DNA of 64,000 bases from a bacterium BMS3Abin11 (GTDB lineage Bacteria; Pseudomonadota; Gammaproteobacteria; BMS3Bbin11), in the NCBI GenBank assembly GCA_002897635.1, contig BDTD01000009.1:54754-118753 (forward strand), read 5' to 3'. This document shows positions 41,400-59,004 of the stretch, piece after piece. The notes below the pieces were generated by a model, which did no database searches, had not been told where the DNA came from, and saw only the letters and a program-made list of their open reading frames with translations. The translations under genes and the position numbers were made by a program. Positions within the stretch are counted from its first letter, which is position 1. The number at the start of each line of letters is the position of its first letter.

Positions 41400-41745
41400 T
41401 TACTCCCACTCGAGATTATAAATAGCCCGACAAAGTCCATTACTAGCGCGGGTTTCCCAGTGGCCGATGGTGCGCGCCAGATGGGTAAGCTCGGCGCTGG
41501 TGGGCGCCTTGACCCAGCGGAACCGGGTGCTTCCATCGGAATGGTCAGTGTACACACCATCGAGGAACAACATATGGAAATGGATATTCAGATTGAGTGC
41601 CGAGCCAAACCGCTGGATGAGGGTGACCGCCCCGGTCCGGGCTGTCTTTTTTGTCAAGCCCGCTTTCTTGATCAGATGGGTGGCAATCACACGGTAGACA
41701 ATGCCGAGCACCCCGCCCGTGACGGCCGGGTGGATTACCAGGGTG
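41400..41745 (-). pseudogene. IS91-family (HUH Y2 rolling-circle) transposase internal fragment
   Basis: ...VYRVIATHLIKKAGLTKKTARTGAVTLIQRFGSALNLNIHFHMLFLDGVY... matches my memory of the IS91-family catalytic region. It is truncated at both ends. High G+C begins here. Confidence 0.55.
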
Positions 41746-42682
41746 CCCGACTGTTGCTGAGGCACAGATCTACCAGGTCGTCGAGGCGCGCGGTCCCGGC
41801 ACACATCACGGTATCCGCGCCACCCCAGTAAATCTTTACGCCGCCGTCGTCATCCGCGACTGCACCGCAGGTAAAAACGACGTTGTGTACATAGCCCGTG
41901 ATCTCCCAGGGATCCTCTGGGGCTAGCACCCATTCATCCGAAACGCCGATAATCTTCGCCGGATTGGCAAGATCGTGCAGCGCCACGCCGAGACGATAGA
42001 CTGCCCCGTCCATGGTCTCGAATACCCCGTGGTAGATGCTGAGCCAGCCGCGTTCGGTGCGGATCGGTGTCGCACCGGGACCGATCTTCGACTCGTCCCA
42101 GTGATACGGCACCGGCTTCATCACCACCTCGGAATCGCCCCAGTGCACCAGGTCCGGCGACCATGACAGCCACACGGACCAGGGGCTGATCTCCGAATGC
42201 GGTCGGTCCAGGCGGGCGTAGCGGCCGTTGAACCGCTGCGGAAAGATAACGACATTGCGCATGTCCGCCTGGGTGATCAACGCCACGCGCTCAATGGATC
42301 GGAAATCACAGGTCCTGGCCAGCCCGATACGCACACCGTGGCGCGAATAGGCGCTGTAGGTAATCAGGTATTCCCCGTCTATACACGAGATTCTGGGGTC
42401 CTCCACCCCAAAAGCCTCGTATTCACCAAAGGCGCCATCTGTCGACGGCACCAGGAACGGCTCCGGGCCGACCGTAAATTTGAAGCCGTCCTCACTCTCG
42501 GCGATGCCGATGATCGACCGGCCGCTACGCAGGTGGGATCGAAACAGCATGATGGTGCGGCCGTCGTATTGTGTCATGCCGGCGTTGTGCACGGTCTCCA
42601 CCGGGTAGGGGATGTCGTCCCGCGTAAGGATCGGGTTGTCCGGACAGCGTTCGATGATTGGCGGTGGTTTAGCTGCGGTCAT
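41735..42682 (-). CDS. GH130 family glycoside hydrolase / beta-mannoside phosphorylase-like
   Basis: Five-bladed beta-propeller GH130/DUF377 signature (NPIL...DIPY, FNAG, EDPRI, YSAY, PWE). The start ATG is preceded by GGAGG. Overlaps the upstream gene's stop by 14 nt. Confidence 0.75.
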   Translation of the reverse strand: MTAAKPPPIIERCPDNPILTRDDIPYPVETVHNAGMTQYDGRTIMLFRSHLRSGRSIIGIAESEDGFKFTVGPEPFLVPSTDGAFGEYEAFGVEDPRISCIDGEYLITYSAYSRHGVRIGLARTCDFRSIERVALITQADMRNVVIFPQRFNGRYARLDRPHSEISPWSVWLSWSPDLVHWGDSEVVMKPVPYHWDESKIGPGATPIRTERGWLSIYHGVFETMDGAVYRLGVALHDLANPAKIIGVSDEWVLAPEDPWEITGYVHNVVFTCGAVADDDGGVKIYWGGADTVMCAGTARLDDLVDLCLSNSRAPW

Positions 42683-44015
42683 AGTCATCCTCCAGCCGGA
42701 TAATATCGTCTTCCCCGAAATAATCTCCCATCTGCACCTCGACCAGAACCAGCGGGATATCACCGGGGTTCGTGATCCTGTGCACTGCACCCTTTGGGAC
42801 ATCCACGGACTGCCCCGGCCTGAGCGGGATTTCCTGATCCCCCACGGTGACCAGCGCTTCGCCACTGACCACGGTCCAGTGCTCGGCCCGGCGCCGGTGC
42901 TTCTGCAGGCTCAGCCGCTGGCCCGGTTGGACGATGATCTCCTTGATTTTGTGATCATCCCGCTCGAGCAGGTTTTCATAGTGTCCCCACGGCCGATAGT
43001 TCTCCCGCTGGTCGAGGATGCTCTGGTAGACCTCCAGGTAGGCGCGTGCCATGTGCCGGCTGGTAAAGCGCTGTTCCACCTCGTCCCGGCAGGCGCGCCG
43101 GTCGAGCGAATCAATCCTGTCCACCGCCTGTACCGCGGCGTTCACATCGGCCACGATGAATCCCGTCTGGCCGTCGCGAATGAGTTCCGGCATTGAGCCC
43201 CGCCCATAGGCGATCACCGGCGTGCCACAGGCCATGGACTCGACCACGCTCAACCCGAACGGTTCGTCGAAGTGAATCAGGTGCAACAACCCCAGCGCAC
43301 CGCCCAGAAGTTCCTGTCTCTTCTCCGGCCCGACGGAGCCAACATATTCCACCATGGATCCATCGATGTGCGGCTCGACCTGTTCCTGGAAGTATGCCTC
43401 GTCCTGCACGATCCCGGCAATCACCAGCCGTAGTCCGGCCCTGCGCGCCACCTCAATGGCATCGTGGACACCCTTATGGTGGTGGATACGCCCGAAGAAC
43501 AACAGGTAGTCTCCCGCGTCTTCGCGGTAGGGGAATTGTGCGAGATCGATGCCATGATGGATGGTTGCGGCGTAATCGAGTTCACAGCTCCTGTCGGCCT
43601 CACTAATGGCCACATAATAGGTGCTGTCATTGTACTTTTTATAAACGGGCAAAATCGACGGCGAAGAGAATCCATGGATCGTCGTGACCAGCGGTGTAGG
43701 GGTAAAACCGCTGTAACTGAGCGGCAGAAAATCGAACTGGTTGTGGATGAGGTCGAACTCATCCGCCCGCCTGAACACCTCGGCGATATGCAGGCATTCC
43801 CAGACCTTGGGATCAATCGAGGGGTCTTCTGAGTAAGGGCGTTCACAAACCCAGGAAAGTTTACCACGGGTAATGGAATCCCCGGTCGCAAACAGTGTCA
43901 CATCGACACCCATCGCCACCAGCTGTTCTGTCAGGAGGCTGACCACATTTTCCCACGGCCCGTAATGGCGTGGGGGTGTGCGCCAGGACAAGGGACTCAA
44001 CATCGCAATCTTCAT
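42669..44015 (-). CDS. GT4 glycosyltransferase fused to a C-terminal mannose-6-phosphate-isomerase-type cupin
   Basis: GT-B/GT4 core (E..GG motif region, EPFGLSVVESMACGTPVIA) followed by the cupin HRRRAEHWTVVSGEALVTVGDQEIPLRPGQSVDVPKGAVHRITN. Confidence 0.7.
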   Translation of the reverse strand: MKIAMLSPLSWRTPPRHYGPWENVVSLLTEQLVAMGVDVTLFATGDSITRGKLSWVCERPYSEDPSIDPKVWECLHIAEVFRRADEFDLIHNQFDFLPLSYSGFTPTPLVTTIHGFSSPSILPVYKKYNDSTYYVAISEADRSCELDYAATIHHGIDLAQFPYREDAGDYLLFFGRIHHHKGVHDAIEVARRAGLRLVIAGIVQDEAYFQEQVEPHIDGSMVEYVGSVGPEKRQELLGGALGLLHLIHFDEPFGLSVVESMACGTPVIAYGRGSMPELIRDGQTGFIVADVNAAVQAVDRIDSLDRRACRDEVEQRFTSRHMARAYLEVYQSILDQRENYRPWGHYENLLERDDHKIKEIIVQPGQRLSLQKHRRRAEHWTVVSGEALVTVGDQEIPLRPGQSVDVPKGAVHRITNPGDIPLVLVEVQMGDYFGEDDIIRLEDDYDRS

Positions 44016-44327
44016 AAAAGAGGCCTGCGTGAACACCTGCGCGCGATCCACGCGCCAGCGGGGTGTTGTTATGATCAGGAACAAATCTGATAGCACAGTA
44101 ACACGATTTGCCTGACGGGCTACAATAACAAAACACCTGACAAAACGAAACCACCGCCCATTCAGATAAGGCTTGGACAGGGTGGAAATTTTACCCTTGC
44201 TGCCGCTAAAGATAGTATAGTGTGTTGAAACAAAAATAGTCTAATCTATTGCCAATTCAACTATAATCCGATATAGCCTGCCACGCAGACCGAACCAGGC
44301 GCAGAGGGCTTGTACCACGTGGAAGCA

Positions 44328-45812
44328 ATGAAAATGGAAAGCAGACCTGACCCCACCACTCCACTCGCGCGGCGCAAGTCGATCGTGATGAAGGCGAAGA
44401 TCAGTCGCGTCATTACCCGGCCGTATCTGCCGTCCGGTGAAGAACGCATCCAAAAAGTTATCCAGCGGGTGTTGAGCCTGGACGAGAATGAGGCGGATAC
44501 GGTGCTGGAAACCCTCTTGCAGGATTTTTCCCACCGCCACCGCTACTTCAGGGAGACCCTGGAGCAAAATTTTGCACGGGTAGCTGACTTTTTGCCGGAT
44601 ATCGATCAGGTATCGAAGCAACGGCGGCTTCTGATCGGCGCGTACTTTACCGCGGAATACTCAGTGGAGGCGGCGGCGTTGTTCAATCCCTCAATCGTTC
44701 AGGTTCCGAACCAGGAGGCGGATCCTGAAGGCACCTGCCGGTTTGTTATGAGCTTCCGTGCCACTGGTGAAGGCCACATCTCCTCCATCGAGTTTCGCAG
44801 CGGGGTTATCGATACCAACAACGATATCTACTTCGATGGCCTGAGCGACTACGTAGCAACCCCGGAAATCCACCCCAACCCAAGCTATGACCGGCACCTG
44901 TTTCGGCTGAAACTCCAGGAGATGGGGGCGAATAATGCGGTAACGCACCAGCTTCTAAACAGGCTGCCGGACAATTTCACCTTCAACGATCTGCAGGGAA
45001 AGATCGCCGAACTCCAGAACAACGGCCAGTTTCCGCCACAGGAGCAGACGGATGCCATTGACATGGCAATGTGGCTGGCGCAATCCAATTACCAGATTTT
45101 GTTTCGCAAGGAACACGCAATTTCCGAGCGGGTGATCTTTCCCGTGTCGGAATCCGAGCGCAAGGGGATCGAGGATGCCCGCTTTGTACGTTTCGTCGAC
45201 GACGACGGCACGGCGGTCTACTACGCCACCTATACCGCGTACAACGGAGAGACGATCCTGCCGCAACTCATCGAGACCCGCGATTTCCTCTCCTTCAAGC
45301 ACATTACGCTGAATGGAGCCCAGGTACAGGGCAAGGGCATGGCCCTGTTCCCGAGAAAGATTGGGGGCAACTACGTGATGCTGTCGCGCCAGGATGGTGA
45401 GAACAATACCATCATGTTCTCGGACAACCTGCACTTCTGGCAGCAGGCCCAGATTCTTCAGGAGCCTGAGTTCCCCTATGAATTCATACAGATGGGCAAC
45501 AGCGGCTCACCCATCGAGATGCCCGAAGGCTGGCTGGTCGTGACCCACGGGGTGGGTCCGATGCGGACCTACAGCCTCGGCATCGAGTTGCTCGACCTGG
45601 ACGACCCGACCCGGATCATCAACCGGATTGAGGAGCCGATCCTGGTGCCGAATGCGTATGAGCGGGAGGGGTATGTCCCGAACGTGGTTTACAGTTGTGG
45701 CGCACTCATCCACCAGGACGAATTGATCATCCCCTACGCCTCGGGCGACCAGCGCTGCGGCATAGCAACCCTGCAGCTACCACAGCTGATGGCCAGGCTG
45801 ACAGCACGGTAG
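44328..45812 (+). CDS. GH130-like beta-propeller protein with an uncharacterised about 250-aa N-terminal extension
   Basis: C-terminal about 240 aa shows GH130/DUF377-like blocks (GIEDARFVRFVDDDG...YYATYTAYNG, GWLVVTHGVG, PNVVYSCGA). I recognise no family for the N-terminal half. The ATG at 44328 follows a GGAAG RBS; the listed ORF starts at an upstream TTG. Confidence 0.6.
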   Translation: MKMESRPDPTTPLARRKSIVMKAKISRVITRPYLPSGEERIQKVIQRVLSLDENEADTVLETLLQDFSHRHRYFRETLEQNFARVADFLPDIDQVSKQRRLLIGAYFTAEYSVEAAALFNPSIVQVPNQEADPEGTCRFVMSFRATGEGHISSIEFRSGVIDTNNDIYFDGLSDYVATPEIHPNPSYDRHLFRLKLQEMGANNAVTHQLLNRLPDNFTFNDLQGKIAELQNNGQFPPQEQTDAIDMAMWLAQSNYQILFRKEHAISERVIFPVSESERKGIEDARFVRFVDDDGTAVYYATYTAYNGETILPQLIETRDFLSFKHITLNGAQVQGKGMALFPRKIGGNYVMLSRQDGENNTIMFSDNLHFWQQAQILQEPEFPYEFIQMGNSGSPIEMPEGWLVVTHGVGPMRTYSLGIELLDLDDPTRIINRIEEPILVPNAYEREGYVPNVVYSCGALIHQDELIIPYASGDQRCGIATLQLPQLMARLTAR

Positions 45813-45828
45813 GGAATGGTAGTCGTCG

Positions 45829-48198
45829 CTATTCCGACGATACTTTCTGAACATCAAGCCGGGTGGGCTCTTCCTCCGGTGTAACCCGATCCCAGCTGCG
45901 GTGGTTATAGACGGCGAGCAGCGCCATGAGCCAGCAAAGCGTGGACTCTGCGCCCTGATTTTCATTCGCGCCCTGCGCTTCCAGCCCGTCCCGGCAGCCG
46001 CCGGTCGCATAATCGCAGAGCGGAACCCCCAGATCGTTCTCGCCTTGGTACCAGTTGAGACAACGGTAGGCATAGGTAATCCATTCCTCATCCCGCGTGC
46101 AGTTGAATGCCTCGATACAGGCGTCCACCATCGCGGCCGCCTCGATGGGTTGTTGATCGAATCGCGCTTTTTCGCCGCCTCTGGGAAACCAGCCGTGATT
46201 GCCGATAGCGACAAAGTGCCGGCCCTTCTCATCGGTCTGAACCTGCTTCAACCAGTCGAGAGAGCGCAACCCCATCTCCAGCATCTCGCTGTCGGGAAGC
46301 CACTGCCCAGACAGCAGTAAAGCCTGTGGCAACCGGGCATTGTCGTAGGTCAGGATGTTGTCACACCAGGGCCAGTCTTCGCTGGCGCACCCCAAGGGCA
46401 CTTCCTGCGGGGCGAAATCCCTGAACCGCTGCATCAGTCGTTCCGAGAGTATCTTGCGCATCATTTTCGCGCGGCTGTCCCCGCTGTAGCGGCCCAGATA
46501 GGCATGAATACCGATAATGGCGAAGGCAATCGCCCGTGGGTGGGTGAAATGTTCGGTGGCGTCCAGTGCACGATGGAACAGGTCGACCGAAAAACCCACC
46601 TGCCCCTTATCCCGCCCCAATGCCACTGCGACGCCCAGCCCCCACACCGCACGACCGTGGGAGTCCTCCGAACCTGTTCCCTCTAGCCAGTAGCGATCAT
46701 AGGACATAAAGTTGCGGAAGCGGCCGGTCTGGTCATTGAAGGCGTGACCCAGAAAACTCAGATAAGTGGCGGCAAGGCCGCTTTGTGCTGAATCCAGAGG
46801 CTGGAGGTCCTGTAGCGTGACCGCGACGATCAACGCGCGGGCATTATCGTCCACGCAATAGCCGTGTGTCCGGTCTGCAACCGTGTACTTGGCGTGTTGC
46901 AACATACCCGTGTCATCGGTCATCCGGCGTAAATAGTCCAGCTTGATCTCCGGTAGCCGTTGCTGGCGTAGTCCGAGGGTCTCCAGCCCGCGCCTGGGTA
47001 CGTTCTTCCTCAATCGCTGTCGTTTGGCTTCTGCAAAGGTGTCGAGATAGCGGCGGCCTACATCACTCCAGACCATTTTGCGACCGTATTGATAGGCCCT
47101 CTCCTGGATGGCGCGGCACTCATCGGGATGATCCAGGAGGTCGATGACTTCCCGCGCCAGAGCGGCCTGATCCCGGAATGGAACCAGCCTGCCCCGATCA
47201 TCAGCGAGCAACTCCTGAGCGTGCCAGAAGGGTGTGGATATCACCGCTTTGCCCATCCCAAGCGCATAGGCAAGCGTGCCGGAAATAATCTGCGCCTCAT
47301 TCAGGTACGGAGTGACATAAATATCTGCCACACCGATAAACTCCAGCAGATCTTCGTCGGCAACGAAACGATCATGAAAAACAATGTGCTCCGAAACGCC
47401 GAGTTCTTTTGCACGCCTGTGAAGGCTGTTTCTGTAATCCTCCCCATCTTCCATCTTAAGGTGCGGATGGGTGGCGCCTACCACCATATAGATGACCTGC
47501 GGGTGGGCCTTCACGATCTCCGGCAAGGCATCTATGACCACCTCAATGCCCTTGCCCGGCGAAAGCAGGCCGAAGGTCAGGATGACTTTCTTTCCGGATA
47601 CGCCGAACTTGTCCTTGTAGGCATCGGATTTGACAAACGGCACGTCAGGGATGCCATGATGTATAAGGACAATCTTCTCCTCCGGCACCTGGTAGATATC
47701 GCGCAGGAATTCGACTGAGCGTTCACTCATCACCACCAGCCGGTCTGAGAACTCGGCAAGTTGCATCATGATGTGCCGGTCCTGAAGGTTCGGATCCTTC
47801 AGGATTGTGTGCAGAGTCGTCACAACCGGCATATTGAGATTACGCAGCAGCTCGATAATAAAGCTGCCCCGCTTGCCACCAAAAATACCGTATTCATGCT
47901 GGAGACAGATCACATCCACCTGGTTAAGGTTGCATAAGTCGGCCGCCAGGCTGTATTCGTTCAGTTGAGACTGGTTGATCTCGAAGCGCACCTGAGACGG
48001 GTAGGAATAGCCTGTTGGCCGGTCGTTCATTGCGACCGCCCAACAGGCTTTGTCCGGTGCATTCAGCGCGATGGATTCAAGCAGGTGGGTGGTGAACGTG
48101 GCGATACCACACTGCCGGGGGAGGTGGTTGCCGATGAGGACGATCGACTTGAGAGCCTCCCATTCTGGTCTTGAGCCTGTCGTGCCGAAGTTATCCAT
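45829..48198 (-). CDS. 789-aa fusion: N-terminal GT4 glycosyltransferase plus C-terminal about 400-aa alpha/alpha-barrel glycoside-hydrolase-like domain
   Basis: N-terminal half has GT4 features (GG-loop, FGLLSPGKGIEV, E..G..V.ST). The C-terminal half (HGYCVDDNARAL..., ENQGAEST) tentatively resembles (alpha/alpha)6 hydrolases. Confidence 0.6.
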   Translation of the reverse strand: MDNFGTTGSRPEWEALKSIVLIGNHLPRQCGIATFTTHLLESIALNAPDKACWAVAMNDRPTGYSYPSQVRFEINQSQLNEYSLAADLCNLNQVDVICLQHEYGIFGGKRGSFIIELLRNLNMPVVTTLHTILKDPNLQDRHIMMQLAEFSDRLVVMSERSVEFLRDIYQVPEEKIVLIHHGIPDVPFVKSDAYKDKFGVSGKKVILTFGLLSPGKGIEVVIDALPEIVKAHPQVIYMVVGATHPHLKMEDGEDYRNSLHRRAKELGVSEHIVFHDRFVADEDLLEFIGVADIYVTPYLNEAQIISGTLAYALGMGKAVISTPFWHAQELLADDRGRLVPFRDQAALAREVIDLLDHPDECRAIQERAYQYGRKMVWSDVGRRYLDTFAEAKRQRLRKNVPRRGLETLGLRQQRLPEIKLDYLRRMTDDTGMLQHAKYTVADRTHGYCVDDNARALIVAVTLQDLQPLDSAQSGLAATYLSFLGHAFNDQTGRFRNFMSYDRYWLEGTGSEDSHGRAVWGLGVAVALGRDKGQVGFSVDLFHRALDATEHFTHPRAIAFAIIGIHAYLGRYSGDSRAKMMRKILSERLMQRFRDFAPQEVPLGCASEDWPWCDNILTYDNARLPQALLLSGQWLPDSEMLEMGLRSLDWLKQVQTDEKGRHFVAIGNHGWFPRGGEKARFDQQPIEAAAMVDACIEAFNCTRDEEWITYAYRCLNWYQGENDLGVPLCDYATGGCRDGLEAQGANENQGAESTLCWLMALLAVYNHRSWDRVTPEEEPTRLDVQKVSSE

Positions 48199-48529
48199 AG
48201 ACGCCTTTTTTTTGCCGGTATTGTTGTGCCGGTGGGTGAATGATTCGATGTTGATACTCCAGTAGTCGAATGCCGCCAGATTGAGAAGCGTACTGCCACT
48301 CGTCAGCTGCCCCTATCTTACATGAATTCAAGGTGATTGGTCGGCTGGACGCCAGGCACCGCAAAACCAGACCACACGTTTTTAAGGTACGTGATATTTT
48401 TAACGCCGATGGGCGGTTACACACCTGCCTTTTTCACGTACGGTATTTTTTTAGAGACACCCTCATCTCGTTGGCGATGTGCTCGAAAGCCTCATACAAT
48501 AAGTTAAAAGCCCCCTACTACAACTTACA

Positions 48530-49726
48530 TCATAATTCCATTATTCCTGACACATTAGGGTGCCTATCAACACGATAGCCTGATTCAACCACGAACTGTG
48601 TCCCAAACATCTTTAAGTTTTCAACTAAATTTTTGCAATATTGAAACCCCGTCTGAGCATCCATTCTTTCCTGGTGTAGGCTTTTTTGCAGCTCGGTTTC
48701 AGATAAATTATCTGCCAGACAGGTCACACTCGTCGGTTTTTTGTTATAAACGTGCGTGTTTAGATCGCTCTCGGCTCGATGCCCCTGAGCATAATAATCC
48801 ACAACCATCTGTATGGCTAAAAATTGGACTTGCGGTTTTTCACTACCCAGCATCAAGAGATCAAAAAATATTTTTGGTAAGTTGAGATCACCCTGACCCA
48901 TTTGAACTCCCAGCTGTGCCCAATATTTGTCGCTCCTGGCTATGAGGACATCCTTGCAATGCGCACCGCGAATATATTCCTGTAAAACCATTATATCGTC
49001 TAACGGCTCTCGGCCAGCTGTAACGGGATTGCCAAAGTCAAACAAAATACCAAGACTGGGATTATTGACGGCCTTAACAATTTCCAGCATTTCAGGACCT
49101 GTTAAGAATTCGTGTTGCTCCAGAAGAAGTTCAATACCCCATTTTTCCACCAATTCAGCGGCGTAACAAAGATCTTTAATCGCTTGCTCGACAATTTCAG
49201 AAAAAGTGCCACCCAATCTGATGTAGCAACGAATAACCGGAACGCCCATGGCACGGGCAACGCGAACCGCTTCTTCAATTTCGCTTTTATCCGTGGAACT
49301 AATATCTATCTGTAAGTCGAGCCTGCGCTCTTTTTTCTGGTATGCAAGATCACGCAGATATTCGTCCGATTCACCTGTCAAGCAAATACAAGGATCGCCT
49401 TTGGCTACATGGAGTTGCGCGCCCGCAAATCCCCACTTTCGCGCATAGGCTAAAAATTCATCGATGGTCAGCTGGTCATGCTTGAAATTAAGCTCCAGAC
49501 TATAACGGTTTAAATACCAAATAATATCATCAACCCGAGTGACAATTATTTTTGCCAAATTTTGATCCAGTATTGGAATTGGAATTCCAGCTACAGGGCC
49601 TCCCGATGGGTTAAGGAATTCCTGGAATTGTTGATTTGCGATCACGCTAGAAGGGGTAAATGTTGATTCATTTATTTTGCCAAACTTGTTAAAATTATTC
49701 ATTTTTAGTCCTGTAATGATTGCCAT
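48530..49726 (-). CDS. sugar-phosphate isomerase/epimerase family protein (xylose-isomerase-like TIM barrel)
   Basis: 398 aa, AP-endonuclease-2 / XylA-like TIM-barrel blocks (E...H..D.G.G...E). Longer than typical family members at both ends. Confidence 0.6.
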   Translation of the reverse strand: MAIITGLKMNNFNKFGKINESTFTPSSVIANQQFQEFLNPSGGPVAGIPIPILDQNLAKIIVTRVDDIIWYLNRYSLELNFKHDQLTIDEFLAYARKWGFAGAQLHVAKGDPCICLTGESDEYLRDLAYQKKERRLDLQIDISSTDKSEIEEAVRVARAMGVPVIRCYIRLGGTFSEIVEQAIKDLCYAAELVEKWGIELLLEQHEFLTGPEMLEIVKAVNNPSLGILFDFGNPVTAGREPLDDIMVLQEYIRGAHCKDVLIARSDKYWAQLGVQMGQGDLNLPKIFFDLLMLGSEKPQVQFLAIQMVVDYYAQGHRAESDLNTHVYNKKPTSVTCLADNLSETELQKSLHQERMDAQTGFQYCKNLVENLKMFGTQFVVESGYRVDRHPNVSGIMEL

Positions 49727-49982
49727 CTACAACGTAGGCGTTCTACCTGGCGTGGTTAGCCTTGCTCTACGAGATTTTAACTATTTAAGGGAATTCTAAA
49801 TATGAAATGTGTCAGTTTGACTACATTGAAATGATTAGAGCGAGAATACGTCTGTTCGTTGGAGCAACATAACGGGTTAATCCAAGTTCCCCTAGATCGT
49901 GGGACTCATCAAAAAGAGGTTATGGCGTCACTTTTCTCTGGTTGAAAAATTGTTAAATTATTCGTAACTATTCGATCTAATC

Positions 49983-50121
49983 AACCTGAATTCGGGATAA
50001 GAAAAACCGGTTTCATTACCGGGGCATTAAGCATTCTCTCATACGTAAACACTTAATTTTGTTCTTACCGTCTTTTATTCGGGAGTCTGAACGGCTTAAT
50101 TTCTTATCCCGAATTCAGGTT
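49983..50121. repeat. perfect 22-bp inverted repeat pair (AACCTGAATTCGGGATAAGAAA) flanking a 95-bp spacer
   Basis: 49983-50004 is the exact reverse complement of 50100-50121. Lies in a 630-bp ORF-free stretch. Confidence 0.6.
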
Positions 50122-50340
50122 AATCAAAGATATCGACACTGACTTTAGATCGGGTTACGAAGAAACTCAAGAGTCCCGAATTCTTACCCGGACGTGATGC
50201 GGAAAACGTCCATTCTATCAAGGTCTTGTCTTTGAGCAATGAATTTCGCAAAGCTATGGCTGTGAGAGTTCGCCAAGAGAAATTCTACGAATATCTCGTT
50301 CGGTAATACTTCCAGAAGTGATTACCTGGGGTTTGATGAC

Positions 50341-50457
50341 ATGGTGATTGGCGATCCAGGGCAAATAAGCCCGGTGCCCGAACCCGCCACCCTCGCACTA
50401 TTCGGCATCGGTCTTGCTGGTCTGGGATTTGCCCGAAAGAAAAGAAAATCTGCATAA
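50341..50457 (+). pseudogene. orphan PEP-CTERM sorting-signal remnant (38 codons)
   Basis: Encodes MVIGDPGQISPVPEPATLALFGIGLAGLGFARKKRKSA*: a PEP motif, a hydrophobic helix and a basic tail. The frame is closed by TGA 27 codons upstream of the ATG, with no signal peptide or mature domain. A terminator follows. Confidence 0.55.
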
Positions 50458-50466
50458 CTTCAACTT

Positions 50467-50490
50467 AACCCGCTTCGGCGGGTTTTTTAT
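50467..50490 (+). terminator. rho-independent terminator
   Basis: AACCCGCTTCGGCGGGTTTTTT: GC stem, a 4-nt loop, then a T-run. Confidence 0.7.
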
Positions 50491-50599
50491 TGTCTGATTA
50501 TCTGGTGTGGTAAGTGCCCGGTTGTGGCCGATAAAAGGCCTTCTCTGAGAGTATAGAAGATATAGAGAGTATAGGAAGAATAAACACCCTTTTTGACCA

Positions 50600-50950
50600 A
50601 GTCCAGCGGCCGTTCACAGCCTATGCCCTGCGCGGTAGCCGTTCGACGCCGAGGAACCCGGCCTGAATTCCGCTTCCAGCGCCAACAATCGAGGATCTTC
50701 TGGATCACCACCGGATCTTCGATGCAGGCGAGAGCCTGCCTCGCGAGCGTAGCGAGTGCTTTGGGCATGACTTTGACTGGCCACCGCATTCACGACACGT
50801 CTCGATGTCGATGCCGAAAACCCGCTTCAGGCGCTGCGCCCAGGTTAATGCCAGGGTGGCATGTATCACTCCCACTCGATTGTAAACGAGCCGGGAAAAG
50901 CCAGTATTGGTGCGGGTTTCAGTGTGGTCATAAGTATCAATACCATGAAA
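50600..50950 (-). pseudogene. IS91-family transposase C-terminal remnant (frameshifted)
   Basis: Minus-strand translation gives ...LTWAQRLKRVFGIDIETCRECGGQ... in one frame and ...ACIEDPVVIQKIL... in another, resembling my recollection of the IS91-family C-terminal region. High G+C like the 41.4-kb fragment. Confidence 0.45.
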
Positions 50951-51090
50951 AATACCATGATAAATGTTTATTGCTAATTACCACTATCCAAAGCCAGCGC
51001 CGTGGCAGATACCATTCCCGACTACCTTTACAATAGACCTATATATGGACTATATTTAGTACCAATTAAACCGGCGAGGAAATACAAACC

Positions 51091-51372
51091 ATGAAATTGA
51101 GTGAATCGGTAAAACCCATCAGCTACTTGAAAAGCCACACCGCCGAGGTTCTGCGGGACGTCAGCGAGGGGCAACGTACCATGGTGATCACACAACACGG
51201 CGAAGCCAGGGCAGTGCTCCAGGACATTGCCAGTTATGAACAAACCCAGGAATCTCTGGCGCTGCTCAAGATGCTGGCCCAAAGTTCCAAAAGTATTCAG
51301 GAAGGCCGCAGCAAACCCATCAAAAAAGCCTTTGCAGATGTTCGCAAACATATTCGGGAAATCACTGAGTGA
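51091..51372 (+). CDS. type II antitoxin, Phd/YefM family
   Basis: 93 aa with a YefM/Phd-like N-terminus (MKLSESVKPISYLKSHTAEVLRDV...TQHGEARAVL). Overlaps the downstream toxin gene by 4 nt. Confidence 0.8.
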   Translation: MKLSESVKPISYLKSHTAEVLRDVSEGQRTMVITQHGEARAVLQDIASYEQTQESLALLKMLAQSSKSIQEGRSKPIKKAFADVRKHIREITE

Positions 51373-51695
51373 AACGCTATCGTGTCCGGCTTACCGAGGA
51401 TGCAGAGCAGGATCTGATCGACATCTACCACTACATTGCGTTCCATGACTCCGTGGAGAACGCAGATTATGTACTGGATCAGCTGGAATCACTCTGCTCG
51501 CGGCTTACCGATCTGTCCGAGCGGGGCCACGTTCCGCCCGAGCTGGTTCGAATCGGAGTAACAAACTATAAAGAGGTCAACTTCAAGCCGTATCGTGTTA
51601 TCTACGAAGTGATCCGGCAGGATGTTTTCATTCATTGCATCCTGGATGGCCGCAGGGATATGCCATCATTACTCGAGCGACGCCTGATTCGTTAG
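51369..51695 (+). CDS. type II toxin, RelE/ParE family
   Basis: 108 aa, ParE-like fold signature (RVRLTEDAEQDL..., RELRIGNYRVIY-type motif YRVIYEV). Confidence 0.75.
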   Translation: MKRYRVRLTEDAEQDLIDIYHYIAFHDSVENADYVLDQLESLCSRLTDLSERGHVPPELVRIGVTNYKEVNFKPYRVIYEVIRQDVFIHCILDGRRDMPSLLERRLIR

Positions 51696-51759
51696 AATTG
51701 TCCCTGGAAAAACCCACCCATGGTTTACCGACAAACCAATCATTGCCTGCCAGTACAGT

Positions 51760-53337
51760 TCACTCCCATTCAATAGTGGCAGGAGGTTTATCTGAAATGT
51801 CATAACTAACACGGGCGATACCATCGATTTCGTTAATAATTCGACGGGACACCAGATCAAGAAAATCGTAAGGCAGATGTGCCCAACGTGCTGTCATGAA
51901 ATCGATGGTTTCTACAGCTCTGAGAGCAACAACATACTGATATCGACGGTTATCACCGACTACGCCTACAGATTTGACTGGTAAAAAGACCGTGAATGCC
52001 TGTGATACCTTGTCATAGAGGTCATGGTTATAAAGTTCTTCGATAAATATATAGTCTGCCCGGCGCAGAAGTTCTGCAAATTCCTTTTTTACTTCTCCGA
52101 GTATACGCACACCCAGTCCGGGACCGGGGAATGGATGCCGAAAGACCATCTCGGTGGGCAAACCCAGCTCGACACCCAGTTTACGTACTTCGTCCTTGAA
52201 CAGCTCTCTTAGTGGTTCGAGCAATTCAAGGTTCATATCATCCGGCAGGCCGCCGACATTATGATGTGACTTGATTACTTTGGCCTTTCCCGTTTTTGAA
52301 CCTGCAGACTCAATAACATCGGGGTAGATTGTCCCCTGGGCAAGCCACTTAACATTCCTTAACTTACTGGCTTCTTCATCAAACACCTCAATAAAGGTGT
52401 GACCGATGATTTTTCGCTTTTTTTCCGGGTCGGCTTCACCTGCCAGGCCACTCAGAAACCGCTCCTCGGCATCAACACGAATCACCCGCACACCCATATG
52501 CTCGGCAAAAGTGGCTATCACCTGATCACCTTCATTTAGGCGTAGTAGTCCGTTATCGACAAAAACGCAGGTCAGCCTGTCGCCTATAGCCTTGTGTAAT
52601 AGGGCGGCAACTACTGAGGAATCAACACCACCAGAAAGACCAAGCAGAACTTCATCATCACCAACCTGGCGACGTATGTTTTCGATGCTGTCCTGTACAA
52701 TATTCGCCGGGTTCCATAATGCCTCGCAGCCACAGATATCGTGCACAAAACGGGCAAGTATACGACTACCCTGTTGAGTATGAGTCACTTCAGGATGGAA
52801 TTGCACACCATAGTAATGACGTGATTCATCTGCCATCCCTGCCAGCGGAGCACTATCCGTAGTAGCAATGACTGAAAACCCTGGGGGTAGTCTGGAAACC
52901 CGATCACCATGACTCATCCAGACATCCAGCAAACCATAGCCTTCTTCCGAAGTATGATCTTCAATATCTTTGAGTAGCTGAGAGTGACCACGCGCCCGTA
53001 TCTGGGCATAGCCATATTCATGATGAGATGAGCTTTCCACTTCTCCACCCAGTTGAGCCGCCATGGTCTGCATGCCATAGCAAATACCCAGTACTGGCAT
53101 GCAGGAATCAAATACCAGTTGACTGATCTTAGGTGTATCGCCTTCAATAACACTCTCCGGCCCACCAGACAAAATATATCCCTTAGCGGCAAACTCTTTT
53201 ATATGAATCTCATCAACATCGTAGGGAAAAATTTCGCAATAAACACCTGCCTCCCTGACTCGCCTGGCAATTAACTGCGTATATTGAGAACCAAAATCGA
53301 GAATAAGAATCCTGTCGGAATGGATATTGTTACTCAT
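51760..53337 (-). CDS. guaA: GMP synthase (glutamine-hydrolysing)
   Basis: [20 protein letters not shown], a GATase Cys-His-Glu triad region, PP-loop SGGVDSSV, 525 aa. Confidence 0.95.
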
Positions 53338-53380
53338 GATTCAGGTATATCTGGAAGGCGGCATTATGATGATGGAAGTA

Positions 53381-54940
<1,560 letters not shown>

Positions 54941-55021
54941 TTACTTGACTGGAGACACATTATTGTTGATTATTAGTGTACATAAATATAAATTTTGAAC
55001 CAATTGAGAGGATTCCTGATT

Positions 55022-55342
55022 ATGAAGAAAATTTTACTTGCAGCCTTTGTCACGTCTGTTTTCGCTGTTAGTGCATGCGCCTCGCCTGGAACTAGTGCCA
55101 AAGCTCCTGATGATGGCTGGGCCAAACAGGTCGCTACAGCTAAAGCTGGAATCAAAGCACTTAAGAAAGAGGACGCACTGTGGCGCGATACGCATAAATT
55201 CCTTAAAAAGGCACAAAAGGCATACAAGGCTGGTGACAAGAAAAAAGCCAATAAGCTAATGAAAAAGGTCAACAGCCAGATAAAATTAGCGGGCCTTCAG
55301 CATGAGAGTCAGAAAAATGCCACGGTTCACATACCTCAGTAG
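55022..55342 (+). CDS. small Lys-rich lipoprotein
   Basis: MKKILLAAFVTSVFAVSAC lipobox (VSAC) after a GAGGA RBS. 106 aa. Terminator immediately downstream. Confidence 0.5.
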   Translation: MKKILLAAFVTSVFAVSACASPGTSAKAPDDGWAKQVATAKAGIKALKKEDALWRDTHKFLKKAQKAYKAGDKKKANKLMKKVNSQIKLAGLQHESQKNATVHIPQ

Positions 55343-55378
55343 TAGTGACCTGTAAGTTACTTTAAAATTTTTCAACTA

Positions 55379-55403
55379 AGCCGGGCAACGCCCGGCTTTT
55401 TTG
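55379..55403 (+). terminator. rho-independent terminator
   Basis: AGCCGGGCAACGCCCGGCTTTTTT. Confidence 0.7.
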
Positions 55404-55434
55404 TTCTTCCATTTCACTTTCGCTCCCTGCTGCT

Positions 55435-56910
55435 ATGCATACTGGCAAGACTATCTATACGGTTTCACTGCTGACAAAAGAAGTTAAAAGGCTGCTGGAA
55501 GCCAGCTATACTAATATTCAGGTAGAAGGAGAAATATCCGGACTCACCCGACCTGCATCCGGTCACCAGTACTTCAATTTAAAAGATGAGAATGCACAGT
55601 TGCGGTGTGTATTTTTCAAAAATAGTGCACGTCTTTCACCTGTTAATCTGGCAAATGGCATGCATGTGATACTCTCGGCCAGAGTGAGCCTTTATGAACA
55701 ACGCGGTGATTTTCAGCTCATCGTACAGGCCGCAGTTGATGCGGGAGAAGGCCTGCTCAGAAAAAAATTCGAACAATTAAAGGCACGACTTGGCGCAGAA
55801 GGATTGTTCGAACTTACAACAAAAAATACTTTGCCGTCCTTACCAAATCGAGTAGGTATCATTACCTCAGCGACTGGCGCAGCAATCCATGACATTATCT
55901 CGGTCTTTAAACGACGCTACCCGGCAATACAATTATTGATTTACCCATCCATGGTACAGGGTGAGCTCGCCGCCGAATCTCTGGTGACAGCAATCAACAC
56001 TGCCAATACTCGCAGAGAGTGTGATGTACTTATTCTTGCTCGTGGAGGTGGGTCCCTGGAAGATCTGTGGCCATTTAATGAAGAAATTGTTGCCAGGGCT
56101 ATCTACCACTGCAAAATACCGCTGGTTTCTGCAGTCGGCCATGAATCAGATTTCACTATTAGTGATCTTGTTGCAGATATTCGCACTGCCACCCCAACAG
56201 CCGCAGCGGAAATGTTATCGCCTGACCTGGAACAATTATCAAAGGTCTATACTAGTCTGCATACAAGACTAACAAATGCATTAAACCGTCACCACGAGGC
56301 CGCAAACCAGCAATTTGACCACTTACACTTACGACTAAATGTATTCAAGCAGCAAACCGATCGTGCCGGATACCGCTACAGCATTTTATCAAAGAGATTT
56401 TCCAGGCTTTCTGCTCCACTAATAAAAGAACGACAGCATCAACTTATCGCATTGGCTACTCGCATTCATCGACCAGACAGTTCGCTGGGGCAATATTCTC
56501 AGCACCGTCTTAATCTTGAACTGCGGCTGGATAGAGCAATAAAAAGCCATATTTCATCTTCATTGTTCTCTTATATTAGTCAGAACAAACGACTATCACA
56601 TCACCTCCCGGAAAATATTGTGCAACATAAATCTATCTACCATGGTGCTGTCAGTAAGCGCTTATGGGCTAAAATACCAGAGTTGTTGCAGCATAGGCGC
56701 AGTCAATTGGAGAGCAAAGTATTTGCATTACAGGCACTAAGCCCATTGCAAACCCTTGCGCGAGGCTTTGCTACATTACAAATACTCGGAGAACAAAAAA
56801 TTGTGAGTTCAGTAAATCAGGTGAAAGTGGGTGATGAACTGCAGGCAAATCTACAGGATGGCTATATACACTGTAAAATTAATAAGGTTCAAAGAGCTAT
56901 CTATGACTAA
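55435..56910 (+). CDS. xseA: exodeoxyribonuclease VII large subunit
   Basis: N-terminal OB-fold (VSLLTKEVKRLLE...IQVEGEISGL...SGHQYFNLKD), 491 aa. Divergent from guaBA as in E. coli. Confidence 0.9.
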   Translation: MHTGKTIYTVSLLTKEVKRLLEASYTNIQVEGEISGLTRPASGHQYFNLKDENAQLRCVFFKNSARLSPVNLANGMHVILSARVSLYEQRGDFQLIVQAAVDAGEGLLRKKFEQLKARLGAEGLFELTTKNTLPSLPNRVGIITSATGAAIHDIISVFKRRYPAIQLLIYPSMVQGELAAESLVTAINTANTRRECDVLILARGGGSLEDLWPFNEEIVARAIYHCKIPLVSAVGHESDFTISDLVADIRTATPTAAAEMLSPDLEQLSKVYTSLHTRLTNALNRHHEAANQQFDHLHLRLNVFKQQTDRAGYRYSILSKRFSRLSAPLIKERQHQLIALATRIHRPDSSLGQYSQHRLNLELRLDRAIKSHISSSLFSYISQNKRLSHHLPENIVQHKSIYHGAVSKRLWAKIPELLQHRRSQLESKVFALQALSPLQTLARGFATLQILGEQKIVSSVNQVKVGDELQANLQDGYIHCKINKVQRAIYD

Positions 56911-57769
56911 ACAAAGCAAGTTCAGACTTTTCGTCTATTCAGTTACAACGCTGCTATTCTACTCAGTATCCGGGTTTTTACCTGTAAGTGCATTCACTGA
57001 ATCTTCTGTACCCGGCGGAGTAACTATCGTTAACCTGGGATCGGCGTCAGAACCAAGGCCTCAGGCCCGCTTCGGCTCAAAAAAAATCATGGTCATTCAA
57101 CGGGATGGAAAATGGAAGGGCCTGGTCGGCCTTTCCCTCAAAACACTGCCGGGAGATTACATCGTCAGTTATAAGGCAGGGGAAAAAAGCAGTTCTGATA
57201 ATGAGATATCCATTAAAGTACAGCCTAAGACGTACCCGGAACAACGAATTAAAATGAAACAGAAAAAATACGTTTCGCCGAACGAGGAACAACTCGCACG
57301 AATAAAAAAAGAAAACAAACATATGGGCAAGTTGTTTAAAATCTGGCGGGATACAGATGTCTCGGTCGATCTAAGCTGGCCAGTCAATGGGCCTGTAAGC
57401 AGTCCTTTTGGTCTAAGGCGATTCTTTAATGATCAACCTCGCAACCCCCATAGTGGCATTGATATCGCAGCGCCGGAAGGCACAGACATTAAATTGCCTT
57501 CAGACGGCACCATCATTGATACAGGAAATTATTACTTCAATGGAAAAACAGTTTTTGTTGATCATGGCCAGGGTATGATCAGCATGTTCAATCATATGAG
57601 CAAAATTACGGTAAAGGCAGGCGACAAGCTAAAACGTGGCGACAAAATTGGCGAAGTTGGCCAAACAGGAAGAGTCACGGGGCCACATTTGCACTGGAGT
57701 CTCAATTTAAACCAGGCCAGAGTAAATCCGATGTTATTCCTGCCGGAGAAGAAAAAAGGGAAGTTTTAG
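56903..57769 (+). CDS. M23 family metallopeptidase (murein endopeptidase-like)
   Basis: HxGxD (HSGIDIAAPEGT) and HLH (GPHLHWS) M23 motifs, an N-terminal TM/signal. The start overlaps the xseA stop. Contains an A8 tract. Confidence 0.8.
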   Translation: MTKQSKFRLFVYSVTTLLFYSVSGFLPVSAFTESSVPGGVTIVNLGSASEPRPQARFGSKKIMVIQRDGKWKGLVGLSLKTLPGDYIVSYKAGEKSSSDNEISIKVQPKTYPEQRIKMKQKKYVSPNEEQLARIKKENKHMGKLFKIWRDTDVSVDLSWPVNGPVSSPFGLRRFFNDQPRNPHSGIDIAAPEGTDIKLPSDGTIIDTGNYYFNGKTVFVDHGQGMISMFNHMSKITVKAGDKLKRGDKIGEVGQTGRVTGPHLHWSLNLNQARVNPMLFLPEKKKGKF

Positions 57770-57774
57770 GTATT

Positions 57775-57830
57775 ATGATTTACGGTTTACGGTTTACGTA
57801 AAACCTAATATGTAAATCGTAAAACGTGTT
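57775..57830. repeat. family C palindromic repeat copy 2 with TTTACGG tandem units
   Basis: TTTACGGTTTACGGTTTACGTAAAACCTAATATGTAAATCGTAAAACG lies between convergent genes. Related to 17262-17307. Confidence 0.5.
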
Positions 57831-57831
57831 T

Positions 57832-59004
57832 TTAAATCGTGGTGCTCATTTCTGCCTCAGCAGAAACCTTGGCAACCAGGAGATCCTGTGAAATATCTCT
57901 CCAGTTGCTATCACTTTGGTCAATCAACTCAGACAGCTTCTTGCTGAGCTTTTGATATTTTAGTTCACTTTCTTCACGCACCATATTGGCTGCTACTTCG
58001 AGGAAGTTAATTACAGCTTCCAGCTTTTTCAGCTTTTCACGCTTGTCCCTGATATCATAGTCTTCATTTTTATCCTCGAAATACTGCTGTGAATTCGTTG
58101 ACATCATCGTGACGGCTTTCTTAAAGCTATTGAAATCAAGCCGAAACATCCCGTAGGCACGCTGATATAGCTTGAAGTAGTCCATCAAGAAGTCTTTTAT
58201 TTTAGCCAGACGACGGTGCTTCTTAAGTGCCGCCACAAAAAGTGTGAATACATCATCGTAATCTTCCCTGATCAATACATCTCTCTCTTTCACTTCTCGC
58301 ATAGTCGGATTCATGGCTTGCTGACACATTGTATTGATTTCTTCCAACAGCTCATCGATTTCTCTTTCCTTTAGTTTAGCTTCGCGCTGAACCATGGAAA
58401 GATTATTTCTTGCTTCTGCATGGTCAAATGTCTGAATAACCTCATCCTTGATGGTTGATTCTATTTCTGACTGTGGGTCATTCCCAAGTGTGCCTGCCAG
58501 TCTCTTCTTCAGCCTGACACTTGCTTCCTTGGCAATCCGATATTCATTTGCTCGTCTGGACTCTACTTCCTTAATTTCCAGAAACTCCGCCATACCGCTA
58601 TTGAATGTTTTTACCTTGAGCAAAAATTGATGGGTAAAGTTCATAAAAGGGGTAAAAAAATCGGCGCTTTCCTGAGGCGTCACTTTGAGGCGATCAAAAT
58701 AACTGCGCAAGTAGGAAACTTTTCGAGCAATAATTTCTGTACTACTTTGAATTCGTGTGCTTATTTTTGATAAATCACTAAAAGCAGTGTGCATTTCTTC
58801 ATTGAAACGCAGAATCTCAATAAGCTTGCGCAACATTGTTTCTTCGCCGCTGGTACGAAGGAATAATGCCTGCAGGCTCTGTTTTGCATCACGCATCTGG
58901 GACTGTGACAGAAGATTATTCTGTTCTGTGTACAGAAGTGCTGTCATAACGATCAGCATTTCCTTCTGTTTTTCCCCGATTGATGTATTTCCTATCTGAT
59001 CCAT
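57832..59004 (-). CDS. hypothetical all-alpha-helical, highly charged protein (no recognisable family)
   Basis: 390-405 aa, start uncertain (ATG at 59004 or TTG at 59049). Predicted all-helical, K/E-rich, coiled-coil-like segments. No catalytic motif or TM segment seen. AT-rich. Confidence 0.5.
   Translation of the reverse strand: MDQIGNTSIGEKQKEMLIVMTALLYTEQNNLLSQSQMRDAKQSLQALFLRTSGEETMLRKLIEILRFNEEMHTAFSDLSKISTRIQSSTEIIARKVSYLRSYFDRLKVTPQESADFFTPFMNFTHQFLLKVKTFNSGMAEFLEIKEVESRRANEYRIAKEASVRLKKRLAGTLGNDPQSEIESTIKDEVIQTFDHAEARNNLSMVQREAKLKEREIDELLEEINTMCQQAMNPTMREVKERDVLIREDYDDVFTLFVAALKKHRRLAKIKDFLMDYFKLYQRAYGMFRLDFNSFKKAVTMMSTNSQQYFEDKNEDYDIRDKREKLKKLEAVINFLEVAANMVREESELKYQKLSKKLSELIDQSDSNWRDISQDLLVAKVSAEAEMSTTI

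Follow-up and report, generated by a model that had tools for sequence, protein, structure and literature searches.

The stretch of DNA analysed here (64 kb, in the following called the window) carries on its plus strand at 50341-50457 an open reading frame (ORF) of only 38 codons that ends in a PEP-CTERM sorting signal, and this raises the question whether the ORF is a small gene of its own, a mobile sorting module or the remainder of a larger surface-protein gene. The ORF (MVIGDPGQISPVPEPATLALFGIGLAGLGFARKKRKSA) was present exactly as given by the first-pass annotation. Its last 25 residues scored above the cutoffs of both curated models, namely 33 bits on TIGR02595 (cutoff 16) and 38.2 bits on PF07589 (cutoff 20.7), so that the description as a PEP-CTERM sorting domain holds. 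The tail is arranged as VPEP-ATLALFGIGLAGLGFA-RKKRKSA-stop with the PEP motif, a hydrophobic transmembrane helix of 16 residues and the basic cluster RKKRK at the extreme C-terminus. A six-frame search of the window gave no second PEP-CTERM motif.

The frame is open from 50266 to 50457 and is closed by an in-frame TGA at 50263-50265. The first-pass annotation had correctly noted this closure; the distance to the ATG is 25 codons and not 27. Between the TGA and the ATG at 50341 no GTG or TTG start occurs, and the ATG is the first start of the frame, 12 residues before the PEP motif. The DNA between the ORF and the minus-strand neighbour gene, which starts at 49726, had been described as free of ORFs. 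Indeed, no ORF of 60 aa or more was found in 49727-50340 (∼610 bp; longest 43 aa), but the region is not featureless, as a 137-bp miniature element (MITE) lies inside it.

A first word-indexed protein search (14 matches) missed the family to which the fragment belongs. An exhaustive HMMER search was needed, which gave 2016 matches with the 62-aa open frame as query. Many of these were proteins of 235-260 aa whose extreme C-terminus aligned with residues ∼5-60 of the query at 55-65% identity, and an alignment-based search yielded more than 1,100 family members. Intact members have ∼240-255 aa with a mature domain of ∼190 aa, and are characterised by a signal peptide, several motifs (FGEDL, FE.F and AFGFYGTDIGDFGG among them) and the ending LFWGF.D...YT.I.F.NT...D.FGFDDM.IGD..QV..VPEP, followed by a transmembrane helix and a basic cluster. 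NCBIfam holds no model specific to this family; its members match the generic domain and, below its cutoff, floc_PepA. A local profile was built from 12 members (241 positions). It matched the window at positions 185-240 only, corresponding to 50284-50451 (80 bits, E = 4e-26), and this match excludes the chance resemblance to PEP-CTERM that had been considered as an alternative.

The closest intact relatives were P0191 (240 aa, 77% identity) and P0176 (250 aa, 76%). Their genes aligned with the window DNA in blastn at 50286-50530 and 50286-50502, respectively, with 81-82% identity. The aligned part takes in the remnant and its terminator plus ∼45-70 nt of flanking DNA, and the similarity stops sharply at ∼50284. 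Since the family similarity stops there, 50266-50283 is junction DNA and the true remnant comprises the last ∼57 codons of the gene, including ∼29 family-specific mature-domain codons upstream of the tail. The closest intact genes (loci L087 and L090) are located immediately 3' of prsT: the prsT gene at 1091-3895 of L090 reached 788 bits on TIGR02917 (cutoff 312), and L087 includes the C-terminal part of prsT. The presence of PrsT marks the XrtA/PEP-CTERM system (Haft et al. 2006, PMC1569441). The remnant is not adjacent to prsT; its neighbours are a xylose-isomerase-like TIM-barrel gene and phd/parE.

What is missing from the remnant is the signal peptide, ∼183 codons of the mature domain and the sigma-54 promoter. 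Profile positions 1-184 gave no match in the six frames of 49600-50283 with all filters switched off and stops masked, and the suggestion that an N-terminal part might be reconstructed with frameshifts thus came to nothing in the six-frame hmmsearch. The proposal that a PEP-CTERM surface-protein gene decayed here was borne out and can be refined: the 5' three quarters are gone and not merely frameshifted, without a trace of positions 1-184. According to Haft et al., ∼97% of PEP-CTERM proteins have a signal peptide, and the proteobacterial members are preceded by a conserved sigma-54 element (PMC1569441). In five out of six intact relatives or paralogues, a -24/-12 element (TGGCAC-N5-TTGC, 0-2 mismatches) was located 40-80 nt before the start codon, with a chance expectation of ∼0.06 matches per region (own calculation), while no TGGCAC-N5-TTGC with up to two mismatches exists in 49727-50345. 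The DNA at 50127-50265 matched neither the family nor any fetched locus (HMM, blastn). Compared with functional PEP-CTERM cargo, the fragment has no family N-terminus in any frame, and its passenger domain is limited to what profile positions 185-240 of 241 contain; a full-length profile match, as expected of a family member, is likewise lacking with 56 C-terminal positions out of 241. Without signal peptide, mature domain and promoter, the fragment cannot act as exosortase cargo.

The apparent translation start has its origin in the parent gene. The ATG at 50341 and the Shine-Dalgarno (SD)-like GGGG before it belong to the codons GGG TTT GAT GAC ATG of the conserved G-F-D-D-M motif. The SD-like match amounts to -5.4 kcal/mol, a value equalled at 10% of random positions, and the strength of the ribosome binding site was uninformative as a discriminator for the ORF. 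A sigma-70-like site was not predicted on the plus strand upstream of it (49727-50345). NCBI already holds the exact 38-aa protein under the name PEP-CTERM sorting domain-containing protein. This entry is an over-call: annotation pipelines call the ORF only because its tail matches the PEP-CTERM model.

A clean intrinsic terminator had been reported after the ORF, and it was recovered by the terminator scan (Table 1). Its stem at 50467-50484 has 7 bp with five GC pairs and is followed by TTTTTTATT. A near-identical terminator is present downstream of the genes at L076, L081, L084, L087 and L090, and those of paralogous PEP-CTERM genes are homologous to it. An Rfam scan of 49000-51500 returned a single match, rsmX at 50396-50488, below threshold (20.6 bits vs a gathering score of 56, E = 0.55), which was treated as noise arising from the terminator.

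Table 1. Features at and around the PEP-CTERM remnant (positions in the window).
Feature	Position	Strand	Evidence or remark
Upstream region of the TIM-barrel gene (48530-49726)	49727-49861	-	Only part of the ORF-free stretch common to all sister strains
TAATCA target-site duplication, left copy	49978-49983		Other element copies show 5-7-bp duplications
IS982-derived MITE, 137 bp, no transposase	49984-50120		Terminal inverted repeats of 21-25 nt, ACCTGAATTCGGGATAAGAAA
TAATCA target-site duplication, right copy	50121-50126		Flanks the MITE
Non-coding junction DNA between MITE and remnant	50127-50265		Kept in strain contig L004 from 50167 (alignment)
Six open junction codons (EFAKRN), non-homologous to the family	50266-50283	+	HMM and blastn similarity stops at ∼50284
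3' remnant, last ∼57 codons and stop of a ∼240-aa PEP-CTERM gene	50284-50457	+	Family HMM, blastn from 50286, TIGR02595/PF07589
PEP-CTERM domain within the remnant	∼50371-50451	+	TIGR02595 and PF07589 above cutoffs
Intrinsic terminator of the ancestral gene	50467-50494	+	Stem AACCCGC/GCGGGTT, loop TTCG, T run; terminator scan
3' flank homologous to flanks of intact family genes and paralogues; end of shared module	50495-50530	+	blastn of L087 reaches 50530
IS91/ISCR-type (rolling-circle) transposase, frameshifted C-terminal fragment	∼50690-50865	-	NF052416, tblastn

The MITE lies 163 bp upstream of the remnant and is the only copy in the window. A 25-nt inverted repeat (49980-50004/50100-50124) encloses 95 nt, and the region folds into one long hairpin (z-score -4.1 for the plus strand, -6.3 for the minus strand). 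The 20-mer arm CCTGAATTCGGGATAAGAAA had 69 exact matches in GTDB representative genomes of many phyla, where ∼1 is expected by chance; often a genome had several of them, and often they lay ∼30 nt from the end of a contig. When copies of the element were aligned in the same orientation, conservation started exactly at A-CCTGAATTC, and the interiors varied by lineage. Identical 21-nt termini flank elements of 1029-1128 bp with a 303-304-aa ORF that corresponds to the IS982 transposase NF033520 (259-266 bits, cutoff 130), as well as many ORF-less elements of 105-421 bp, and complete copies show target-site duplications of 5-7 bp. Given the IS982-type termini, the TAATCA on both sides and the absence of a transposase, the element is an IS982-derived MITE. 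MITEs of this family have been described before, e.g. MITECca01 of Cardinium (PMC9769881). In silico excision of the element failed to recover an ORF, because stops remain in every frame.

Downstream, ∼230 bp beyond the remnant, a transposase fragment of the IS91/ISCR type was detected. It matched NF052416 (ISCR clade Ia) with E = 8e-10 at positions 443-485 of 509, with 37.8 bits where the cutoff is 925, and reads on the minus strand as ...RVFGIDIETCRECGG / VKV...ACIEDPVVIQKIL... with a frameshift. In tblastn, similar sequence was found in more than 5000 plasmids. The fragment is itself a remnant and not an intact gene. It shares with IS91/ISCR transposases the C-terminal Cys motif and the ...IEDPxVIxKIL region; unlike intact genes of this type, it has only ∼55-60 codons left, is frameshifted and is further deleted in a closely related strain (contig L004). 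It is followed by a phd/parE toxin-antitoxin pair (51091-51695) and guaA.

Five contigs from four MAG assemblies cover parts of this region. One of them (L005) contains the exact window sequence from 49669 to 53829 with 100% identity, while L003 spans 49719-57967, L001 42530-50244 and L002 46922-50069. The fifth, L004, belongs to a strain that is ∼96.5% identical; it covers 50167-50473 and resumes at 50765. Overlapping contigs agree base for base, and the junction is thus real and not an assembly artefact. All five have an end within 49669-50244, so that a repeat is suspected; going by these contig breaks, the MITE may exist in multiple copies in the host genome.

Relatives were collected by a metagenome scan for synteny that was anchored on the TIM-barrel gene. 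Three (L077, L078 and L079) with 94-97% protein identity were obtained, and their similarity to the window ends at 49940, 49861 and 49878, respectively. Past the junction, L077 continues with the N-terminal zinc-finger part of an IS91-type transposase and then unrelated genes, and L079 with an IS3-type OrfA. L078 has an IS982-type end at the same insertion site as the window (cgatctaTtca|ACCTG...), with a different interior. None of the three has an intact PEP-CTERM gene or the remnant at this locus, and all are rearranged at 49861-49940. As the intact gene is present at the locus in no relative, decay in situ is inferred, not observed. The comparison illustrates how a single intergenic junction is reshaped in different ways by IS982 MITEs and by IS91, ISCR and IS3 elements among strains of 94-97% identity, and how these elements break MAG assemblies.

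Within L004, a 291-bp deletion (∼50474-50764) has taken away half of the terminator, on its 3' side, together with a portion of the IS91/ISCR fragment. The remaining sequence differs from the window by seven substitutions in the 174 nt of 50167-50340. Among them are a K>R change in the junction codons and four substitutions in the 57-nt mature-domain part, of which two to three are non-synonymous (S>T, Ser synonymous, R>G, Leu synonymous). Judged from the sequences, substitutions in the mature-domain part of the remnant look unconstrained. Not a single substitution was observed in the 133 nt of 50341-50473, i.e. the 38 codons and 16 nt of the 3' UTR. For this one strain pair, zero changes in 133 nt against four in the preceding 57 nt correspond to a Fisher p of ∼0.008 (own calculation).

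Altogether, the locus is very probably the non-functional 3' remainder of a gene for a PEP-CTERM (exosortase-sorted) surface protein, an ordinary gene remnant and not a new kind of mini-protein. The ancestor was a member of the ∼240-255-aa family with a signal peptide and a sigma-54 promoter, as in the closest intact members just 3' of prsT. A deletion or rearrangement in the IS-rich intergenic DNA would then have taken the promoter, the signal peptide and ∼183 codons. What it left behind would be ∼57 codons at the 3' end, together with the terminator and a flank of ∼45-70 nt. The start codon of the 38-codon ORF is the conserved Met of FDDM, and its SD-like GGGG is the Gly codon of the same motif. 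The truncation was probably caused by IS activity, with no IS end placed exactly at the 50284 breakpoint. The fragment is presumably not expressed; given the SD-like sequence before the ATG and the intact terminator of the window, translation from a read-through transcript might nevertheless occur. One observation counts against a relic, as the tail is more conserved relative to L004 than expected of a freely decaying pseudogene.

This conservation has to be seen together with the occurrence of the same tail elsewhere. The tail VPEPATLALFGIGLAGLGFARKKRKSA was found in at least 12 intact proteins (170-217 aa) whose passenger domains are unrelated and which the family HMM matched in the tail only. 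In DNA, the genes of these proteins are similar to one another and to the window only between -83 to -86, at the VPEP codons, and +50 to +114 beyond the stop, a span that includes the near-identical terminator ACCCGCTTCGGCGGGTTTTTTATTGCCTGATTATCTGGTG. In three samples, the same three of these paralogues occur together, and every identical-tail protein is encoded on a short, unbinned metagenome contig. As far as the sequences go, tail and terminator form a DNA-level module that is common to paralogues with unrelated mature domains. It appears doubtful, although worth keeping in mind, that tail, terminator and ∼50-100 nt of flank act as a cassette that is exchanged or homogenised among paralogues of this marine gammaproteobacterial lineage whose passenger domains are unrelated, with orphan tails as donors or by-products or, in a variant, with the 38-aa peptide titrating the exosortase. 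If true, this would explain why the tail is frozen between the strains while the adjacent part of the remnant drifts.

That the fragment at this very locus has been kept or regenerated by recombination among PEP-CTERM paralogues, as a portable 3' cassette whose orphans serve as donors or by-products, is improbable. The sharp sharing of DNA between unrelated genes from -83 to -86 to 50-114 nt past the stop and the tail-only HMM matches of the paralogues would fit, and so would the zero tail divergence, which is what gene conversion from paralogous tails would produce. However, the true family members at L087 and L090, which match each other over the whole gene, are similar to the window from -171 and not from -83. 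The ∼29 mature-domain codons kept upstream of the tail mean that the remnant arose by truncation of a complete gene. For this copy, the earlier idea of a mobile module awaiting fusion is therefore not supported. Moreover, no recombination signal, integrase or repeat was found at the cassette boundary, and the paralogue contigs are unbinned metagenome sequences that are not assigned to this genome. Apart from the origin of the fragment, gene conversion from intact paralogous tails could still keep an orphan tail unchanged, as the one strain pair and the unbinned contigs suggest.

The same frozen tail might be read as a sign that the ORF encodes a genuine small membrane protein, a signal-less peptide with a short N-tail and one transmembrane helix, inserted N-out/C-in with KKRK inside, that is bound by the exosortase and acts in cargo processing as a decoy, regulator or competitor. 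This is as improbable as regeneration by recombination. Such a topology is physically plausible from the sequence and from general knowledge of short N-tail insertion, there is an SD-like sequence before the ATG, the window has kept the terminator whole, and the 38 codons with 16 nt of 3' UTR are identical to L004 where the adjacent 174 nt have seven substitutions. But the tail has no synonymous changes either. Selection on a peptide would not remove these, so that gene conversion or recombination explains the frozen tail better than purifying selection on a protein. In addition, ATG and SD-like sequence are inherited from the conserved GFDDM codons and SD-like matches of this strength are common by chance, neither a sigma-70 nor a sigma-54 promoter is predicted upstream, half of the terminator is lost in L004 and the fragment is absent at the locus in the three sister strains. 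An intact long gene broken by mis-assembly or sequencing errors at a repeat can practically be dismissed, since the contig ends inside 49669-50244 and the repeat-family element there are outweighed by the base-for-base agreement of independent assemblies and by the lack of any family-like sequence in the 64-kb window that could complete the gene.

For functional cargo, an exosortase (XrtA/EpsH) and several PEP-CTERM paralogues would be expected in the same genome (Haft et al. 2006, PMC1569441). An NCBIfam scan of all large ORFs found no exosortase, PrsK, PrsR or PrsT in the window. It contains housekeeping genes (pgi, galU, radA, alr, dnaB, mutS, sec, rib, tgt/queA, glyA, guaA/B, xseA, der, bamB and hisS) and, at 41.7-49.7 kb, a cluster of GT4 glycosyltransferases, GH130 mannoside phosphorylases and the TIM-barrel gene. 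A tie to the DUF3473 deacetylase at 36776-37642 had been proposed. This link is weak, as the deacetylase remained below the cutoff of TIGR03006 (188 bits vs 276) and has no XrtA-system neighbours, and it was rejected as a marker of an XrtA locus. The lineage plausibly has an exosortase system, considering that the closest intact homologues adjoin prsT and that many intact proteins carry the identical tail.

With regard to annotation, HMM-driven calls of tail-only ORFs inflate the counts of exosortase cargo, and such ORFs should be flagged as pseudogene fragments. Of wider interest is the lead given by the tail and terminator module common to unrelated PEP-CTERM genes; should complete genomes confirm it, one would learn from it how sorting signals stay uniform or move within a paralogue family.

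Among known systems, the fragment is similar to proteins sorted by PEP-CTERM/XrtA (EpsH) in its PEP motif, 16-residue helix and RKKRK end and in the terminator that directly follows (PMC1569441). It differs from such cargo in that it has no signal peptide, no sigma-54 element, only ∼29 mature residues and not the full length. With the prsT-adjacent family represented by P0191 and P0176 it shares its last 56 residues at 76-77% protein and 81-82% DNA identity including terminator and flank, whereas positions 1-184 are absent and the remnant is placed between a sugar-metabolism cluster and phd/parE-guaA. The upstream element corresponds to IS982-family MITEs as a short, non-autonomous element with IS982 terminal inverted repeats, a target-site duplication and no transposase, while its interior is unrelated to that of any fetched copy. 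Orphan cdiA-CT and rhs-CT modules carry the variable end of their genes and are proven recombination donors. By analogy, the remnant may be compared to them as the 3' part of a gene for a surface or secreted protein, lacking a promoter and having a block of DNA homology in common with full-length paralogues; unlike in these orphans, it is the constant end that is carried, and exchange would be putative here. As a whole, the finding is a real feature, and its explanation is ordinary.

At the DNA level, the 3' ends of PEP-CTERM genes are similar to each other despite unrelated mature domains. This applies to the gene remnant in the window (50371-50535), to the closest intact family genes located directly after prsT (L087, L090) and to PEP-CTERM genes at other loci (L075, L076, L080, L081, L084). 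The similarity has a sharp onset at the VPEP codons (-83 to -86), spans the stop codon as well as a near-identical terminator and ends 50-114 nt further on. Tail and terminator behave as a common cassette. A spacer of ~30 nt between stop codon and terminator is present in the other PEP-CTERM genes compared and absent from the window copy. The Rfam model rsmX matched window 50396-50488, overlapping tail and terminator, with only 20.6 bits against a gathering score of 56 (E = 0.55), and this weak match is most likely noise.

In the region L080:5860-9711, the gene of P0078, a paralogue with an identical tail, adjoins a phage-type integrase, a primase-like zinc-ribbon gene and a DUF3631 gene. It is located within an integrated mobile element and thus, some PEP-CTERM genes of the window-related group travel on islands.

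The 21-nt terminus of the IS982-family element, ACCTGAATTCGGGATAAGAAA, which bounds the 137-bp MITE in the window (49984-50120), is exactly conserved across phyla. It was found at loci L006-L074 in Bacteroidota, Cyanobacteria, Chloroflexota, Verrucomicrobiota and Gammaproteobacteria; the interiors between the termini are completely different. MITEs of 105-421 bp bounded by ends of this type are common, and about ten contigs of a Methylobacter MAG terminate ~30 nt inside the IS982-family element. An imperfect outer inverted repeat (49961-49980, TTCGTAAC..CGATCTAA; 50144-50161, TTAGATCGGGTTACGAA) encloses the MITE together with its target duplication, an arrangement that suggests insertion of the MITE into the loop of a hairpin that was already there. 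A third, partial repeat resembling GAATTCGGGA lies at 50170-50183.

The 575 bp at window 49669-50244 contain an end of each of five contigs from four MAG assemblies, and in one MAG two unmerged contigs overlap there by 526 bp. Both are likely due to the MITE, presumed to be multi-copy, or to strain heterogeneity. In a sister strain (GCA_011052155.1, L004), a 291-bp deletion relative to window 50474-50764 with 2-nt microhomology has halved the terminator, whose 3' side is gone, and has also taken away part of the IS91/ISCR transposase fragment. It shows that this intergenic region is under ongoing erosion. The toxin-antitoxin pair, flanked by the IS91 fragment on one side and guaA on the other, is a further sign of the segment being accessory DNA.

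Features of the window and promoter elements of intact PEP-CTERM genes
Feature	Position	Match
571-aa ORF	35055-36770	no NCBIfam match
DUF3473-type polysaccharide deacetylase	36776-37642	TIGR03006, 188 bits (cutoff 276)
Sugar-metabolism cluster	41735-49726	
GH130-type beta-mannoside phosphorylase homologues (two)	41735-42865, 44310-45812	
GT4 fused to mannose-6-phosphate isomerase C-terminal cupin	42669-44096	
GT4 protein, 789 aa, long C-terminal extension	45829-48198	
Xylose-isomerase-like TIM-barrel protein	48530-49726	
phd/yefM-parE type II toxin-antitoxin pair	51091-51695	PF02604, E = 2e-16; PF05016, E = 9e-17
Sigma-54-type -24/-12 elements	L087:839, L090:4299, L075:268, L081:367, L084:298	

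Some ORF calls of the sugar-metabolism cluster overlap at 42.6-42.9 kb, suggesting that its start sites need curation. The DUF3473-type protein is similar to the deacetylase of the XrtA system, with a score under the cutoff of that model; its neighbours are a GT2 gene and the 571-aa ORF, and the setting is not an XrtA locus.

Intact PEP-CTERM genes of the window-related group carry sigma-54-type elements 40-80 nt upstream (pattern TGGCAC-N5-TTGC, 0-2 mismatches), in agreement with the PrsK/PrsR regulon that Haft et al. 2006 described.
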